A stretch of DNA of 23,188 bases, taken from a virus. Lineage: Duplodnaviria > Heunggongvirae > Uroviricota > Caudoviricetes. The notes under the pieces were generated by a model. The model ran no database searches, had not been told where the DNA came from, and worked only from the letters and a program-made list of their open reading frames with translations. The stretch is taken from IMG/VR virus record IMGVR_UViG_2728369607_000006; one strand, given 5' to 3'. Shown here piece by piece: positions 547 to 23,188 of the stretch; positions within the stretch are counted from its first letter, which is position 1; each line of letters begins with the position of its first letter. The position numbers and the translations under genes were made by a program.

Positions 547-4227
<3,681 letters not shown>

Positions 4228-15300: not shown

Positions 15301-18300
15301 ATGGGTAAAGGCAGCAGTAAGGGGCATACCCCGCGCGAAGCGAAGGACAACCTGAAGTCCACGCAGCTGCTGAGTGTGATCGATGCCATCAGCGAAGGGC
15401 CGGTTGAAGGTCCGGTGGATGGATTAAAAAGCGTGCTGCTGAACAGTACGCCGGTGCTGGACACTGAGGGGAATACCAACATCTCCGGTGTCACGGTGGT
15501 GTTCCGTGCCGGTGAGCAGGAGCAGACACCGCCGGAGGGGTTTGAATCCTCCGGCTCCGAGACGGTGCTGGGTACGGAAGTGAAATATGACACGCCGATC
15601 ACCCGCACCATTACGTCTGCAAACATCGACCGTCTGCGCTTTACCTTCGGCGTGCAGGCACTGGTGGAAACCACCTCAAAGGGGGACCGGAATCCGTCGG
15701 AAGTCCGCCTGCTGGTTCAGATCCAGCGTAATGGTGGCTGGGTGACGGAAAAAGACATCACCATTAAGGGCAAAACCACCTCGCAGTATCTGGCCTCGGT
15801 GGTGGTGGGTAACCTGCCGCCGCGCCCGTTCAATATACGGATGCGCAGGATGACGCCGGACAGCACCACAGACCAGCTGCAGAACAAAACGCTCTGGTCG
15901 TCATACACCGAAATCATCGATGTGAAACAGTGCTACCCGAACACGGCACTGGTCGGCGTGCAGGTGGATTCGGAGCAGTTCGGCAGCCAGCAGGTGAGCC
16001 GTAATTATCATCTGCGCGGGCGCATTCTGCAGGTGCCGTCGAACTATAACCCGCAGACGCGGCAATACAGCGGTATCTGGGACGGAACGTTTAAGCCAGC
16101 ATACAGCAACAACATGGCCTGGTGTCTGTGGGATATGCTGACCCATCCGCGCTACGGCATGGGGAAACGTCTTGGTGCGGCGGATGTGGACAAATGGGCG
16201 CTGTATGTCATCGGCCAGCATTGCGATCAGTCGGTGCCGGACGGTTTTGGCGGCACGGAGCCGCGCATCACCTGTAATGCGTACCTGACCACACAGCGCA
16301 AGGCGTGGGATGTGCTCAGTGATTTCTGCTCTGCGATGCGCTGTATGCCGGTATGGAACGGGCAGACGCTGACGTTCGTGCAGGACCGACCGTCGGATAA
16401 GGTGTGGATCTATAACCGCAGTAATGTGGTGATGCCGGATGATGGTGCGCCGTTCCGCTACAGCTTCAGCGCCCTGAAGGACCGCCATAATGCCGTTGAG
16501 GTGAACTGGATTGACCCGAATAACGGCTGGGAGACGGCGACAGAGCTTGTGGAGGACACGCAGGCCATTGCCCGTTACGGTCGTAACGTCACGAAGATGG
16601 ATGCTTTTGGCTGTACCAGCCGGGGGCAGGCACACCGCGCCGGGCTGTGGCTGATTAAAACAGAACTGCTGGAAACGCAGACCGTGGACTTCAGCGTGGG
16701 TGCCGAAGGGCTTCGCCATGTACCGGGCGATGTCATTGAAATCTGCGATGATGACTATGCCGGTATCCGCACCGGCGGGCGCGTGCTGGCGGTAAACAGC
16801 CAGACCCGGACGCTGACGCTCGACCGTGAAATCACGCTGCCATCTTCCGGCACCACGCTGATAAGCCTGGTTGACGGGCAGGGGAGTCCGGTCAGCGTGG
16901 AGGTTCAGTCCGTCACCGACGGCGTGAAGGTGAAAGTGAGCCGTGTTCCTGACGGCGTTGCTGAATACAGCGTATGGGGGCTGAAGCTGCCGACGTTGCG
17001 CCAGCGCCTGTTCCGCTGCGTGAGTATCCGTGAGAACGACGACGGCACGTATGCCATCACCGCCGTGCAGCATGTACCGGAAAAAGAGGCCATCGTGGAT
17101 AACGGGGCGCACTTTGACGGCGACCAGAGCGGCACGGTAAATGGTGTCACGCCGCCAGCGGTGCAGCACCTGACCGCAGAAGTCACCGCAGACAGCGGGG
17201 AATACCAGGTGCTGGCGCGCTGGGACACGCCGAAGGTGGTGAAGGGCGTGAGCTTCCTGCTTCGCCTGACCGTGGCAGCGGATGACGGCCGTGAGCGGCT
17301 GGTCAGCACGGCCCGGACGACGGAAACCACTTACCGCTTCACACAACTGGCTCTGGGGAACTACAGGCTGACAGTCCGGGCAGTAAATGCGTGGGGGCAG
17401 CAGGGCGATCCGGCGTCGGTATCGTTCCGGATTGCCGCACCGGCAGCGCCGTCGCGGATTGAGCTGACGCCGGGCTATTTTCAGATAACCGCCACGCCGC
17501 ATCTTGCGGTTTATGACCCGACGGTACAGTTTGAGTTCTGGTTCTCGGAAAAACGGATTGCGGATATCAGGCAGGTTGAAACCAGCGCGCGTTATCTTGG
17601 TACGGCACTGTACTGGATAGCCGCCAGTATCAATATCAAACCGGGCCATGATTATTATTTTTACGTTCGCAGTGTGAACACCGTTGGCAAATCGGCATTC
17701 GTGGAGGCTGTCGGTCAGCCGAGTGATGATGCATCAGGCTATCTGGATTTTTTCAAAGGCGAGATAGGGAAAACCCATCTGGCTCAGGAGCTGTGGACGC
17801 AGATTGATAACGGTCAGCTTGCGCCTGACCTGACTGAAATCAGGACGTCCATAACGGATGTCAGCAATGAAATAACACAGACCGTCAATAAGAAACTGGA
17901 AGACCAGAGTGCAGCGATCCAGCAGATACAGAAGGTTCAGGTTGATACAAATAATAACCTGAACAGCATGTGGGCAGTGAAGCTGCAGCAGATGCAGGAC
18001 GGACGCCTTTATATCGCGGGTATCGGTGCCGGTATTGAGAACACCCCTGACGGCATGCAGAGTCAGGTGCTGCTGGCAGCAGACAGGATTGCGATGATTA
18101 ATCCTGCGAATGGCAACACAAAGCCGATGTTTGTTGGTCAGGGCGATCAGATATTCATGAATGAAGTGTTCCTGAAACGCCTGACGGCCCCCACCATTAC
18201 CAGCGGCGGTAATCCTCCGGCATTTTCCCTGACATCAGACGGGAGACTGACGGCGAAAAATGCGGATATCAGTGGCAGTGTGAATGCGAACTCAGGAACG

Positions 18301-18798
18301 CTCAACAATGTCACGATTAACCAGAACTGTACGATTAAGGGCATGCTGGAGGCGACCCAGGTCAGAGGAGATTTCGTTAAAGCTGTATCAAAAGCCTTCC
18401 CGAAAAAAGTCGGTACGTGGGGTAACACGGAAACACCAAACGGTACGGTTACAGTCACCATCAGCGATGATCATAACTTTGACCGCCAGATTATTATTCC
18501 GCCCATTATTTTTAACGGTATAGCGTATGACGATCCGGGGAGCGGAAATAACCCAGGAGGCACGCGATACACGGGTTATGGTTTTGAAGTTCGCAAAAAC
18601 GGCGTATTAATCGCATCCAGAGAAACTAAAGGGGCCATTCCCGGTAGTTACAGTGCAGTTATTGATATGCCGAGTGGCAGGGGAAGCGTCACTCTGGAGT
18701 TTAAGATTTTCCAGAAAGGCAATCAGGGGGCAGGCAATATCACCGACTGTACGGTGATTGTGACCAAAAAAGCCGCTTCCGGCATCAGTATTCGTTGA
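15301..18798 (+). CDS. J: Central tail fiber / host specificity protein gpJ
   Basis: 1165-aa [37 protein letters not shown]...; N-terminal ~1000 aa lambda-J-like, C-terminal ~150 aa divergent from lambda J as recalled (lambda J is 1132 aa); Shine-Dalgarno TGAGGA at 15295-15300. Confidence 0.93.
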
Positions 18799-18868: not shown

Positions 18869-19468
18869 ATGCGTAAAGTTTGTGCAGCAATTTTGTCCGC
18901 AGCCATTTGTCTGGCCGTATCCGGTGCGCCTGCATGGGCGTCTGAACATCAGTCCACGCTGAGCGCGGGGTATCTTCATGCCTCGACGAACGTCCCCGGC
19001 AGTGATGATCTGAACGGGATTAACGTGAAATACCGTTATGAGTTTACGGACACACTGGGGCTGGTGACGTCATTCAGCTATGCAGGAGACAAGAATCGCC
19101 AGCTGACCCGTTACAGCGATACCCGCTGGCATGAAGATTCCGTTCGTAACCGCTGGTTCAGCGTAATGGCGGGGCCGTCTGTGCGCGTGAATGAATGGTT
19201 CAGCGCGTATGCGATGGCGGGTGTAGCTTACAGCCGTGTGTCGACTTTCTCCGGGGATTATATCCGCGTAACTGACAATAAGGGGAAAACGCACGATGTG
19301 CTGACCGGAAGTGATGACGGTCGCCACAGCAACACGTCTCTGGCGTGGGGGGCTGGCGTGCAGTTTAACCCGACCGAGTCCGTGGCCATTGATGTCGCTT
19401 ATGAAGGTTCCGGCAGTGGCGACTGGCGCACTGACGGTTTCATCGTGGGTGTCGGTTATAAATTCTGA
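18869..19468 (+). CDS. lom: Lom/Ail/PagC-family outer membrane beta-barrel protein (lysogenic-conversion moron)
   Basis: 199 aa with signal peptide MRKVCAAILSAAICLAVSGAPAWA; C-terminus AYEGSGSGDWRTDGFIVGVGYKF identical to lambda Lom and ends in aromatic F typical of outer-membrane beta-barrels; flanked by hairpin terminators on both sides; Shine-Dalgarno GAGAGG upstream. Confidence 0.85.
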   Translation: MRKVCAAILSAAICLAVSGAPAWASEHQSTLSAGYLHASTNVPGSDDLNGINVKYRYEFTDTLGLVTSFSYAGDKNRQLTRYSDTRWHEDSVRNRWFSVMAGPSVRVNEWFSAYAMAGVAYSRVSTFSGDYIRVTDNKGKTHDVLTGSDDGRHSNTSLAWGAGVQFNPTESVAIDVAYEGSGSGDWRTDGFIVGVGYKF

Positions 19469-19532: not shown

Positions 19533-22500
19533 ATGGCAGTAAAGATTTCAGGTGTACTGAAAGACGGCACAGGAAAACCGGTACAGAACTGCACAATCCA
19601 GCTGAAAGCAAAACGTAACAGCACCACGGTGGTGGTGAACACGCTGGCCTCAGAAAATCCGGATGAAGCCGGGCGTTACAGCATGGACGTTGAGTACGGG
19701 CAGTACAGCGTTATTCTGTTGGTGGAGGGATTCCCGCCGTCACATGCCGGGACCATCACCGTGTATGAAGATTCCCGACCCGGTACGCTGAATGATTTTC
19801 TCGGTGCCATGACGGAGGATGATGCCCGTCCTGAGGCACTGCGCCGTTTTGAACTGATGGTGGAAGAGGTGGCGCGTAACGCGTCCGCGGTGGCACAGAA
19901 CACGGCAGCCGCGAAGAAGTCAGCCAGCGATGCCAGCACATCAGCCCGTGAGGCGGCAACCCATGCGACTGATGCTGCAGGCTCAGCACGCGCAGCCAGC
20001 ACGTCAGCCGGACAGGCCGCGTCGTCGGCTCAGTCAGCGTCTTCCAGCGCAGGAACGGCATCAACAAAGGCCACTGAAGCGGAAAAAAGTGCTGCCGCTG
20101 CAGAGTCCTCAAAAAGCGCGGCGGCCACCAGTGCCGGTGCCGCGAAAACGTCAGAAACGAATGCTGCAGCGTCACAACAATCAGCAGCCACTTCTGCATC
20201 CACCGCGACTACGAAAGCGTCAGAAGCTGCCACCTCAGCCCGGGATGCGGCGGCTTCAAAAGAGGCGGCAAAATCATCAGAAACGAACGCATCCTCGAGC
20301 GCCAGTAGCGCAGCTTCCTCGGCAGCAGCGGCAGGAAATTCCGCGAAGGCGGCAAAAACGTCCGAGACGAACGCCAGGTCTTCTGAAACGGCAGCGGGAC
20401 AGAGCGCCTCGGCTGCGGCAGGCTCAAAAACAGCGGCTGCGTCGTCTGCCAGTGCAGCGTCAACAAGTGCCGGGCAGGCCTCAGCCAGTGCCACCGCCGC
20501 CGGAAAATCGGCAGAAAGCGCCGCATCGTCTGCTTCAACAGCCACAACGAAGGCTGGCGAAGCCACTGAACAGGCCAGCGCAGCAGCGAGGTCTGCTTCC
20601 GCAGCGAAGACATCCGAAACGAACGCGAAAGCGTCGGAAACCAGCGCAGAATCCTCAAAAACGGCTGCCGCATCGTCCGCCAGTTCGGCGGCGTCATCGG
20701 CCTCATCGGCGTCTGCTTCAAAAGATGAGGCGACCAGACAAGCGTCAGCAGCGAAGGGCAGCGCCACGACGGCATCCACGAAGGCAACAGAGGCTGCTGG
20801 CAGTGCGACGGCGGCAGCACAGAGCAAGAGTACGGCAGAATCCGCAGCAACGCGCGCCGAGACAGCAGCAAAACGGGCAGAGGATATTGCATCCGCTGTG
20901 GCGCTTGAGGATGCGAGCACGACGAAAAAGGGGATAGTACAGCTCAGTAGTGCGACTAACAGCACTTCCGAGTCACTGGCGGCAACACCAAAAGCCGTTA
21001 AGGCCGCGTATGACCTGGCTAACGGGAAATACACCGCACAGGATGCAACGACAGCACAGAAAGGGATAATCCAGCTAAGCAGCGCGACCAACAGCACGTC
21101 TGAAACGCTTGCCGCGACACCAAAGGCAGTAAAAACAGCCTATGACAATGCTGAGAAACGTCTGCAGAAAGATCAGAACGGTGCGGATATCCCTGGCAAA
21201 GACACCTTTACGAAAAATATTGGTGCCTGCCGTGCCTTTGGTGGGTCAGTAAGCACAATAACAGGAAACTGGACGACTGCACAGTTTATCGAGTGGCTGG
21301 ATTCTCAGGGAGCATTTAACCATCCCTACTGGATGTGCAAGGGTTCCTGGTCTTATGGCAATAATAAAATCATTACTGATACTGACTGCGGTAATATTCA
21401 TCTCGCCGGAGCTGTCATTGAAGTAATGGGGATAAAGTCAGCGATGACGATCCGCATTACCACACCGACCACCTCCACTGGTGGTGGAACAACTAACGCC
21501 CAGTTTACCTATATTAATCACGGAACAGATTATTCACCTGGCTGGCGAAGGGACTATAACTCCAGAAATAAGCCAACGGCATCAGAGATCGGGGCGTTAC
21601 CGTCAGGTGGAACAGCAGTATCATCAGTTAATCTGTCTTCAAAAGGTCGGGTAACCGCGCTGACAGACAATACGCAGGGGGCAACAGGTCTTGAGTTATA
21701 CGAGGTGTATAACAACGGATATCCAACAGCGTATGGAAATATCATTCACCTGAAAGGGATGACAGCCGTTGGCGAAGGTGAGTTACTCATCGGCTGGAGT
21801 GGTACAAGCGGTGCTCATGCTCCGGCATTTATTCGTTCACGACGGGATACGACCGACGCAAACTGGTCGCCGTGGGCGCAGCTTTACACCTCGGCTCATC
21901 CTCCTGCAGAGTTTTATCCAGTCGGTGCACCAATCCCGTGGCCATCAGATACCGTTCCGTCTGGCTATGCCCTGATGCAGGGGCAGACTTTTGACAAATC
22001 TGCATACCCGAAACTTGCAGCGGCTTATCCGTCAGGCGTGATCCCTGATATGCGTGGCTGGACGATTAAGGGCAAACCTACCAGTGGTCGGGCCGTATTG
22101 TCTCAGGAACAGGACGGCATTAAATCGCATACCCACAGCGCCAGCGCATCCAGTACGGATTTGGGGACGAAAACCACATCGTCGTTTGATTACGGCACTA
22201 AATCCACGAATAACACTGGTGCGCATACCCATAGTTTAAGTGGCAGCACGAATGCAGCTGGTAATCACAGCCATAGAGATGGCCGTCGATTTAACCCCAG
22301 TGTTTTTAAAGATACTTATCAATATGGTTATACAAGCTCAGGTCAAAATACCTGGGGTGTACAAGGCTCAGTAGGTATGTCTACGGGGTGGTTAGCGAAT
22401 ACCAGTACAGATGGTAATCATAGCCATTCACTGTCCGGCACAGCAGCATCTGCAGGTGCACACGCGCATACTGTCGGTATTGGTGCTCATACGCACTCCG

Positions 22501-22604
22501 TTGCGATTGGTTCACATGGACACACCATCACCGTTAACGCTGCTGGTAACGCGGAAAACACCGTCAAAAACATCGCATTTAACTATATTGTGAGGCTTGC
22601 ATAA
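19533..22604 (+). CDS. stf: Side tail fiber protein Stf (long variant with repeat tract and His-rich distal tip)
   Basis: ATG at 19533 ([27 protein letters not shown]...) matches the lambda Stf N-terminus; the ORF track starts 2 codons upstream at GTG 19527. C-terminus ...[19 protein letters not shown] matches lambda Stf. About 1023 aa versus 774 aa recalled for full-length lambda Stf; stop overlaps the tfa start (TAATG). Confidence 0.9.
19890..20890 (+). repeat. Imperfect tandem repeat tract encoding the Ala/Ser/Thr-rich shaft of Stf
   Basis: Recurrent nucleotide motifs such as gcg/aaa-acg-tc(a/c)-ga(a/g)-acg-aa(c/t)-gc encoding AKTSETNA (at least 4 copies) and many SASAA/ASSAS variants; low-complexity GC-rich coding sequence. 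Boundaries approximate. Confidence 0.7.
20927..21143 (+). repeat. Two copies of an ~86-bp unit (period ~131 bp) encoding the phage fibre repeat KKGI(V/I)[11 protein letters not shown](S/T)LAATPKAVK(A/T)AYD
   Basis: Copy 1 at 20927-21012 and copy 2 at 21058-21143; the protein sequence is conserved while many synonymous positions differ (agtagtgcgact versus agcagcgcgacc). Confidence 0.75.
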
Positions 22605-23188
22605 TGGCATTCAGAATGAGTGAACAACCACGGACCATAAAAATTTATAATCTGCTGGCCGGAACTAATGAATTTATTGGTGAAGGTGACGCATATATTC
22701 CGCCTCATACAGGTCTGCCAGCAAACAGTACCGATATTGCACCACCAGATATTCCTGCTGGCTTCGTGGCTGTTTTCAACAGTGATGAGGCATCGTGGCA
22801 TCTCGTTGAAGATCATCGGGGAAAAACCGTCTATGACGTGGCTTCCGGCGACGCGTTATTTATTTCTGAACTCGGTCCGTTACCGGAAAATGTTACCTGG
22901 TTATCGCCGGGAGGGGAATATCAGAAGTGGAACGGCACAGCCTGGGTGAAAGATGCAGAAGCAGAAAAACTGTTCCGGATCCGAGAGGCGGAAGAAACAA
23001 AAAACAGCCTGATGCAGGTAGCCAGTGAGCATATTGCGCCACTTCAGGATGCTGTAGATCTGGAAATCGCAACGGAGGAAGAAACCTCATTGCTGGAAGC
23101 CTGGAAAAAGTATCGGGTGTTGCTGAACCGTGTTGATACATCAACTGCACCTGATATTGAGTGGCCTACGAACCCTGTCAGGGAGTAA
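22604..23188 (+). CDS. tfa: Tail fiber assembly chaperone Tfa
   Basis: 194 aa [37 protein letters not shown]..., near-identical to lambda Tfa; its stop codon is the last 3 bases of the window. Confidence 0.93.

Follow-up and report, generated by a model that had tools for sequence, protein, structure and literature searches.

Modular architecture and allele distribution of the side tail fibre gene stf of a lambda-like Escherichia coli prophage

We analyzed the side tail fibre gene (stf) carried on a 23,188-nucleotide stretch of viral DNA (hereafter, the window) and conclude with high confidence that it is intact, that it belongs to a lambda-like prophage of E. coli and that its allele architecture is a common natural one. 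Sequence comparison identifies stf as a mosaic of modules, as judged from its architecture, its homologies, the distribution of its alleles and signatures of exchange. An earlier, sequence-only reading of this DNA had correctly called the gene a mosaic Stf; it also considered it an unusual "long variant", but this part is not supported, as the length had been measured against lambda only. Indeed, the allele is already known: it is present in RefSeq, near-identical copies are carried by isolated phages, and for every module there is a relative that is characterised or of solved structure.

In the window, J is followed by lom, stf and tfa, in line with how RefSeq annotates the source genome. The stf open reading frame begins at an ATG that is also the start used by RefSeq, with a GTG two codons upstream as an alternative start. 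The Caudo_TAP gene tfa lies immediately 3' of stf, its start sharing 1 nt with the stf stop codon, and is 94% identical to lambda tfa in DNA. Pfam identified phage_tail_N, two copies of Phage_fiber_2 and Collar in the Stf protein, and NCBIfam assigned neither the complete protein nor its central region to a family. The N-domain has a homologue of solved structure in 9E7M, central domain A in 8JU3 and the tip in 2XGF (E values of 1e-51 to 1e-85). The genes of the locus and the modules of stf are as follows.

15301-18798: J
18869-19468: lom
19533..22604, + strand: stf, side tail fibre gene (ORF call; 1023 aa plus stop codon)
19533..19835, + strand: N-terminal tail-attachment (collar) domain and linker, aa 1-101 (PF08400, E 1e-71)
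19836..20912, + strand: Ala/Ser/Thr-rich heptad shaft (proximal coiled coil), aa 102-460 (7-residue periodicity)
20442..20756, + strand: 105-aa (15-heptad) shaft segment not in lambda Stf, aa 304-408 (global alignment)
20931..21047, + strand: fibre repeat 1 (Phage_fiber_2), aa 467-505 (Pfam PF03406)
21063..21173, + strand: fibre repeat 2 (Phage_fiber_2), aa 511-547 (Pfam PF03406)
21168..21602, + strand: central domain A, Mu S' / P2-type tail fibre knob, aa 546-690 (8JU3 match)
21603..21914, + strand: central domain B, second shuffled tail-fibre domain, aa 691-794 (sequence homologues)
21915..22265, + strand: collar domain and proximal needle strands with HxH motifs 1-2, aa 795-911 (Pfam Collar; 2XGF alignment)
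22266..22427, + strand: hypervariable head (putative receptor-binding) cassette between HxH motifs 3 and 4, aa 912-965
22428..22601, + strand: returning needle strands with HxH motifs 5-7 and conserved C terminus, aa 966-1023 (2XGF alignment)
22604..23188, + strand: tfa, tail fibre assembly chaperone, 194 aa (Pfam Caudo_TAP, E 1e-44)

As a reference we used Ur-lambda Stf, which we rebuilt from J02459 by fusing the orf-401 and orf-314 frames. Since this protein has 774 aa, the Stf of the window is 249 aa longer, in good agreement with the approximately 250 aa estimated previously. Residues 1-94 match the lambda Stf N terminus resolved in 9E7M/9MGH (E 1e-51), the N-domain is 93% identical to that of lambda, and the two proteins share about 395 N-terminal residues as well as a 229-aa collar and needle tip (71% identity). 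The termini are therefore shared, as had been noted, but not merely the "extreme" C terminus, since this whole 229-aa tip is common to both. Within the tip, which is about 16 aa shorter than that of lambda (229 versus 245 aa), the collar and proximal needle strands (aa 795-911) are 83% identical to lambda, and from position 22455 onward the DNA identity is 94%.

The shaft has a period of strictly 7 residues (z about 9 versus shuffles). Residues 116-460 consist of 38% Ala, 24% Ser and 12% Thr, and 47 unbroken heptads extend from residue 130 to residue 458, with Ala at one core position in 46/47 and Ser at the other in 37/47. Lambda has 32 heptads with the same positional pattern, and its equivalent region has been modelled as a trimeric coiled coil (PMC12617516). 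The Ala/Ser/Thr tract is indeed longer than in lambda, by 105 aa in the alignment, and the similarity in DNA ends at 20441 and restarts at 20746. At the DNA level, Tandem Repeats Finder and a direct-repeat search of the shaft detected no true tandem array: Tandem Repeats Finder returned just two units (9-12 nt), and dispersed repeats reached at most 23-29 nt, at 65-86% identity. The "repeat tract" is a heptad pattern at the protein level only.

The fibre repeat had been reported in two copies, and PF03406 likewise gives two stretches. Their proteins are identical in 26 of 32 positions and their DNA is only 70% identical, indicating that the duplication is old; a recent internal duplication was rejected on this ground. 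The number of copies ranges from 1 to 4 among alleles, and the first repeat begins at residue 467 in 63 of the 66 surveyed.

Downstream of the repeats, about 250 aa (aa 546-794, nt 21168-21914) form a central region that stands in place of about 135 unrelated lambda residues. Alignment confirmed that it is without counterpart in lambda Stf, as had been proposed. By homology, this region is made of shuffled tail-fibre domains common to Mu S', P1 Sv' and P2-like fibres. Central domain A matches residues 177-334 of the Mu tail fibre S' (8JU3; domain E 3e-68), with identities of 82-84% to P2-like phages and 69-72% to Mu S'. An AF2 monomer model covering aa 540-800 was confident for this domain only (pLDDT 75-93), and its sole significant Foldseek match in the PDB was 8JU3 (E 9e-20). 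Homologues of central domain B are present in P1 Sv', in phage Goslar (77%) and in Vibrio phages (45%). With domain B alone as the query, no PDB sequence was matched even at E = 10, and its pLDDT of 30-60 in the monomer model was too low for fold assignment. Pfam at E values up to 10 returned just Gp34_trimer across the A/B junction, at 20.4 bits versus a cut-off of 27. The A+B pair occurs in 17 alleles of the 66-allele survey.

The resemblance of the tip to T4 gp37 was borne out, as 2XGF, the solved structure of the gp37 tip, is a homologue (E 2e-84). We found seven HxH motifs, at residues 866, 898, 912, 963, 977, 986 and 995 (nt 22128-22523), all of which align one-to-one with the iron-binding motifs of gp37 (2XGF), whose needle carries seven iron atoms (PMC6957217). 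Clustered HxH motifs had thus been recognized, although six were listed rather than seven; a "His-rich tip" is, however, no trait of this variant, as HxH motifs number 8 in lambda Stf and 7 here.

Base composition differs along the gene. GC is 0.48 and 0.52 in the central domains, 0.43 in the tip segment and 0.62 in the shaft, and the trend holds at the third codon position, with GC3 values of 0.59 (N domain), 0.53 (shaft), 0.48 and 0.43 (central domains) and 0.29 (head; 15/51 codons, binomial p = 0.005 versus 0.5). The central and tip segments are hence AT-richer, as first observed by eye on the letters, and their suggested origin as acquired DNA is in agreement with their coincidence with exchanged modules. 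Ala codons, on the other hand, largely account for the high GC of the "lambda-like flanks": in the shaft, GC2 is 0.77 and GC3 only 0.53.

To place this protein among natural Stf proteins, we surveyed 66 complete alleles with this N-domain. Because their lengths span 652-1176 aa, 1023 aa is unremarkable. The Stf of the window is 100% identical to WP_072199933.1 in E. coli OkiPb01685, and the stf allele was found at a coverage of at least 80% in 636/5426 complete E. coli genomes. Furthermore, the isolated phages mEp460_ev081, PhiR26_1, PhiR42_1 and PhiR68_2 are 97.6-99.1% identical to it (99.1% in DNA for the mEp460_ev081 tail fibre gene and 97.8% for PhiR26_1). In the literature on mEp460, the PhiR phages and this allele, we found no specific receptor or experimental report.

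Three other readings of the gene were weighed against a common natural mosaic. A long shaft of low complexity, 74% Ala, Ser and Thr, is compositionally repetitive and could in principle have been collapsed or expanded during assembly. However, tandem repeats are absent from its DNA, the reading frame and heptad register are unbroken, and stf is matched over its full length, in one aligned piece, in many independent complete and phage genomes. Since the tract length agrees with that in many independent complete and cultured-phage genomes, an expansion by assembly is very unlikely, and we attach practically no weight to an artefact. The gene could also be an unusual, expanded derivative of lambda stf that gained shaft repeats, an extra fibre repeat, a foreign central domain and a distinctive His-rich tip. 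It does exceed Ur-lambda Stf by 249 aa with exactly these differences, and GC3 is lower in its central and head segments. Nevertheless, many alleles are longer still (up to 1176 aa), HxH motifs are more numerous in lambda (8 versus 7), and the fibre repeats have diverged to 70% identity in DNA. The 466-aa N-domain and shaft is common to 63/66 alleles and K-12 Rac StfR, which contradicts a "long variant with expanded shaft" and indicates that the lambda shaft, without the 15 heptads, is the deviant one; similarly, the aa 304-408 segment was found at 90% identity or more in 65/66 other alleles. Because the 66 alleles were picked for a near-identical N-domain, 466 aa is the usual form within a large E. 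coli clade and may not be so for all Stf. Taken together, an origin as an expanded lambda derivative appears quite improbable.

The third reading concerns the internal Mu S' / P1 Sv'-type domains, which might form a second, lateral receptor-binding site, for instance for LPS core sugars, and make the fibre bispecific. In Mu and P1, these domains come from the variable part of the fibre that determines host range. Across the alleles, their presence is also independent of which tip cassette is carried, as could be the case for a specificity determinant. On the other side, their P1 counterpart is the proximal 60% of Sv' and not its distal end, and the same domains occur in either order, as shaft knobs, in many fibres. 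We therefore regard a lateral site as unlikely.

We next consider the head cassette, which is the AT-rich segment of the tip, within the common mosaic architecture. The cassette is bounded by the direct repeat GGTAATCAYAGCCAT at 22260-22274 and 22413-22427, two GNHSH-coding 15-mers. We aligned 40 distinct tip sequences, drawn from 53 alleles, and found residues 915-962 to be hypervariable, with about nine cassette types between near-invariant flanks. The cassette of the window is present in 15 alleles, joined to at least six other architectures. It corresponds in position to a subdomain of the T4 gp37 tip (residues about 929-959) that binds LPS and OmpC (PMC6957217).

The cassette is 96% identical in DNA, and 94% in protein, to gp37 of the virulent T-even-type phage P896, whereas the flanks are only 68-71% identical in DNA (Fisher p about 1e-14). 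This difference argues for a recent exchange of the cassette, and we consider it probable, though well short of certain, that these approximately 160 bp were recently exchanged between a virulent T-even-type (P896-like) myophage lineage and temperate lambdoid prophages. Composition suggests a direction, as the cassette GC3 of about 0.25-0.29 fits the T-even genome and not the Stf flanks. As the cassette is rare among T-even records (1 match) yet common among prophages, this direction is only tentative. If the exchange is real, the His-box motifs would be portable recombination handles through which unrelated phages, virulent and temperate, exchange receptor specificity in the E. coli populations of today, and phages of very different lifestyle with this cassette would have a receptor in common. 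The P896-shared cassette would also be a clean natural case in which a receptor-binding cassette was swapped at His-box motifs, and it could inform the engineering of host range.

We propose the following model for the fibre. By homology, each fibre would consist of three Stf chains, attached to the collar around the tail by the N-terminal domain (aa 1-101). The Ala/Ser-core coiled coil of 47 heptads would form the proximal shaft, whose 15 additional heptads would, under standard helix geometry, make it about 15-16 nm longer than that of lambda. In place of the lambda hinge and distal coiled coil, there would then be two short fibre repeats and two globular knobs of the type known from Mu S', P1 Sv' and P2 H. 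These would be followed by a T4 gp37-type tip, a collar and then an up-and-down needle whose seven HxH motifs are predicted to coordinate seven metal ions. At its far end, the head cassette (about 50 residues) would touch the host receptor, by analogy with lambda and T4 probably an outer-membrane porin and/or LPS. The tip would be folded by the Tfa chaperone encoded directly 3' of stf. The modules of this mosaic gene are exchanged at conserved junctions: one follows the fibre repeat, another precedes the collar, and the His-box motifs beside the head cassette provide the others.

The closest experimental reference is Ur-lambda Stf, whose architecture has been described and which is the only one for which trimeric virion fibres and faster adsorption were demonstrated (PMC12617516). 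It has the same J-lom-stf-tfa locus, Ala/Ser heptad pattern in the shaft, type of fibre repeat, and collar and HxH needle. Unlike the Stf described here, it has 15 fewer heptads, one fibre repeat instead of two and, at the place of the two knob domains, a hinge with a distal coiled coil (about aa 394-525). In the tip, lambda alone has a 10-aa duplication (SFDYGTKTTG) and an extra GIGAHQHPVV unit, hence its 8 HxH motifs versus 7. Since the head cassette also differs from that of lambda, the receptor need not be OmpC as in lambda. Laboratory lambda is thus a poor standard for Stf length, its fibre being a short outlier. The natural module junctions match R393 and S528, the fusion points of functional engineered lambda Stf chimeras (PMC11338833); this coincidence with chimeras engineered for phage-based delivery is of modest practical value.

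The K-12 Rac StfR (1120 aa) shares the 466-aa N-domain and shaft and the 7-HxH tip framework, but carries another head cassette. The isolated lambdoid phage Kati has the same tip (99.6%), but in both Rac StfR and Kati the fibre repeat is single and the central region is longer and of another kind. Neither the window nor the adjoining downstream part of the source genome, where a methyltransferase gene and a truncated tfa are located, contains an invertase, an invertible segment or an inverted alternative; in contrast, Rac and mEp460_ev081 have a pin-like gene at the downstream position. Similarly to the T4 gp37 tip (2XGF), the tip has a collar, needle and head layout, and a 15-residue C-terminal stretch is identical. 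However, gp37 belongs to a myophage long tail fibre and here the tip is on a siphophage side fibre, and the T4 head cassette is shorter and unrelated in sequence. Mu S' (8JU3), P1 Sv' and P2-like H share the fibre repeat and central domain A (about 70-84% identical). P1 Sv', which is 73% identical over 96% of the query, also has central domain B, although the order of domains A and B is reversed. Unlike in Mu and P1, the domains are internal here and are followed by a gp37-type tip instead of the Mu/P1 distal domain with its U/U' chaperone. Finally, mEp460_ev081 and PhiR26_1 carry essentially the allele described here.

The window spans the late morphogenesis genes of a lambda-like prophage, beginning with the terminase genes and ending with tfa, and its distal end is organized as follows.

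15301-18798: J, upstream of stf
18869-19468: lom, between J and stf
19533-22604, plus strand: stf, an intact ORF of 1023 aa
22604-23188: tfa, tail fibre assembly gene, 194 aa, with a 1-base overlap with the stf stop codon

One E. coli chromosome, that of strain OkiPb01685 (bovine faeces, Okinawa), contains this stretch with 100% identity; there, the prophage adjoins ompT/envY and Stf is WP_072199933.1, annotated as "prophage tail fiber N-terminal domain-containing protein." Between tfa and ompT/envY (a DLP12-type locus), this chromosome (L084 9629-10741) contains a small ORF, a truncated pseudogene for tail fibre assembly and, on the opposite strand, a class I SAM-dependent methyltransferase. 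A pin-like serine recombinase occupies the equivalent position in Rac (L085 6085-6675) and in phage mEp460_ev081 (L002 6745-7335). J is 1165 aa long, compared to 1132 aa in lambda, and its C-terminal ~250 aa (18034-18798, aa 912-1165) share just 53% identity with the lambda protein; within this part, GC3 drops from ~0.74 to ~0.51. The receptor-binding domain of this central tail fibre probably differs from that of the LamB-specific lambda J.

For comparison, we restored the full-length Stf of Ur-lambda (774 aa) from J02459, fusing the orf-401 and orf-314 frames across the known frameshift, and aligned it globally with the Stf of the window. The differences from lambda described in the sequence-only reading, including a central domain that lambda lacks, were borne out. 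The two proteins are ~90% identical over residues 1-303, after which a block of 105 aa (304-408) has no counterpart in lambda. Two Phage_fiber_2 repeats are present rather than one, residues ~546-794 replace ~135 unrelated lambda residues, and the final 229 residues are 71% identical to the lambda tip. DNA similarity to lambda extends over 19533-20441, 20746-21003, 21924-22202 and 22419-23188, and these junctions agree with the protein alignment.

The shaft had been taken for a repeat tract. Tandem-repeat analysis of the shaft found no DNA-level repeat, and the pattern is one of protein heptads, with identity autocorrelation maxima at all multiples of 7 (z ~9). Residues 130-458 comprise 47 uninterrupted heptads, with alanine at one core position in 46 and serine at the other in 37. 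In the lambda shaft this pattern extends over 32 heptads, exactly 15 fewer, and the equivalent region of Ur-lambda was modelled as a proximal trimeric coiled coil in a cryo-EM/cryo-ET study (PMC12617516). By standard helix geometry, the extra 105 residues would add ~15-16 nm of length. Two long ORFs overlap the shaft (20030-21097, minus strand, 355 aa; 19930-20937, plus strand in another frame, 335 aa) and look like by-products of its stop-poor, Ala-codon-rich composition; a comparable antisense "orf206b" is annotated over the same region in the lambda record. The two fibre repeats (20931-21173) are identical at 26 of 32 protein positions but only ~70% identical in DNA, indicating that the duplication is old. 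A 23-nt direct repeat, 78% identical, links 19740-19762 (SHAGTITV, N-domain) and 22512-22534 (SHGHTITV, tip), and is probably a chance match of two short copies.

Scanning IMG/VR with the N-domain recovered 80 loci, 66 of them with complete Stf ORFs. These alleles ranged from 652 to 1176 aa and carried one to four fibre repeats; as the loci were picked for near-identical N-domains, the length comparison holds for this E. coli clade. The first fibre repeat starts at residue 467 in 63/66 alleles, as in the window, compared to residue 362 in lambda, and 65/66 carry the 105-aa segment at ≥90% identity. The 466-aa N-domain plus shaft also recurs in K-12 Rac StfR, a protein of 1120 aa. Lambda is therefore the short outlier within this clade, and the allele that had been called a long variant with an expanded shaft is, at 1023 aa, about average. 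Among 5426 complete E. coli genomes, 5174 were matched by stf, 636 with at least 80% of the gene covered, and 126 records were ≥99% identical. The same allele occurs at full length in the isolated phages mEp460_ev081 (99.1%) and PhiR26_1, PhiR42_1 and PhiR68_2 (~97.7%). Because gene length agrees across these independent genomes and phages, an assembly expansion of the shaft is very unlikely.

The AT-richness noted in the central and tip segments is real and persists at third codon positions: GC3 is 0.59 in the N-domain, 0.53 in the shaft, 0.55 in the repeats, 0.48 and 0.43 in the two central domains, 0.50 in the collar, 0.29 in the head and 0.43 in the distal needle. Alanine codons account for most of the very high GC of the shaft as a whole (0.62), where GC2 is 0.77.

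In the central region, a PDB sequence search aligned residues 538-695 with residues 177-334 of structure 8JU3, the tail fibre S' of Mu (domain E 3e-68). An AF2 monomer model was confident for domain A only (aa 546-690), and 8JU3 was its single significant PDB fold match; searching PDB sequences with domain B alone (aa 691-794) gave no structural match. By tblastn against phage genomes, the whole region is present in P1 Sv' (73% identity, 96% coverage), P7 and SSU5, its first half in P2-like phages (82-84%) and Mu/D108 S' (69-72%), and its second half in phage Goslar (77%) and Vibrio phages (45%). In P1, the match sits in the proximal 60% of the invertible Sv' segment and runs in reverse order, B-like (L083 2573-2820, window 21645-21892) then A-like (3006-3411, window 21163-21568), indicating that the two domains are independent modules, shuffled separately. 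Found in 17/66 alleles, they are common tail-fibre building blocks.

Residues 794-1023 matched the T4 gp37 receptor-binding tip 2XGF (E 2e-84), in agreement with the likeness to gp37 proposed earlier. The HxH motifs are clustered as described but number seven instead of six, and all align with 2XGF motifs; the T4 needle holds seven iron atoms (PMC6957217). Since lambda Stf has eight such motifs, the His-rich tip is a canonical Stf/gp37 feature rather than one special to this variant. When 40 distinct tip sequences, representing 53 alleles, were aligned, the segment between motifs 3 and 4, where T4 gp37 carries its receptor-contacting subdomain (PMC6957217), fell into about nine unrelated cassette types, and its flanks were almost invariant. 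The window's cassette, which corresponds to the AT-rich tip segment noted initially, is the commonest type (15 alleles) and is combined with at least six other architectures.

A search with this cassette alone found one virulent T-even-type phage, P896 (Gaprivervirus), plus lambdoid phages.

Codon-aligned comparison of Stf with P896 gp37
Cassette, aa 912-965: nucleotide identity 156/162 (96%), third-position identity 51/54
Upstream flank: nucleotide identity 68%, third-position identity 36%
Downstream flank: nucleotide identity 71%, third-position identity 43%

The difference between cassette and flanks is highly significant (Fisher's test, p ~1e-14). Copies of a 15-nt direct repeat, GGTAATCAYAGCCAT, which encodes GNHSH, bound the cassette on both sides (22260-22274 and 22413-22427); the positions compared are 22260-22427 of the window and about 2519-2726 of the P896 locus (L086, OL451225). 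GC3 is 0.25-0.29 in the cassette, 0.26-0.37 in P896 gp37 and 0.49 in the Stf flanks. This sharp identity block and the GC3 match support the proposed horizontal acquisition of the tip segment and suggest a T-even-like source, although we only infer that the exchange ran from T-even phage to Stf. Most cassette types in lambdoid alleles are AT-richer than their own flanks.

By homology, each fibre would consist of three chains whose N-domains attach to the collar on the tail. Proximally, the shaft would be an Ala/Ser coiled coil; the middle would consist of the fibre repeats plus two knob domains, and a gp37-type collar, needle and head would bind the receptor, with Tfa as a putative folding chaperone. 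Our default guess for the receptor of the head cassette, by analogy with lambda and T4, would be a porin and/or LPS. Working lambda Stf chimeras have been built with fusion points at R393 and S528 (PMC11338833), and the natural junctions fall at these same positions, one following the fibre repeat and the other immediately preceding the collar.

Overall, the initial observation was sound, and its interpretation was partly right but lambda-centric: this Stf is a common, already catalogued mosaic allele made of known modules. References cited in PMC3157838 and PMC12617516 date recognition of the Stf/gp37 tip relationship to the 1980s-90s, and the concept that adhesins recombine at conserved motifs is well established (cited in PMC3157838 from Tetart et al. 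1996, 1998). Mild novelty lies only in the cassette with sharp boundaries that Stf has in common with a T-even-type phage.
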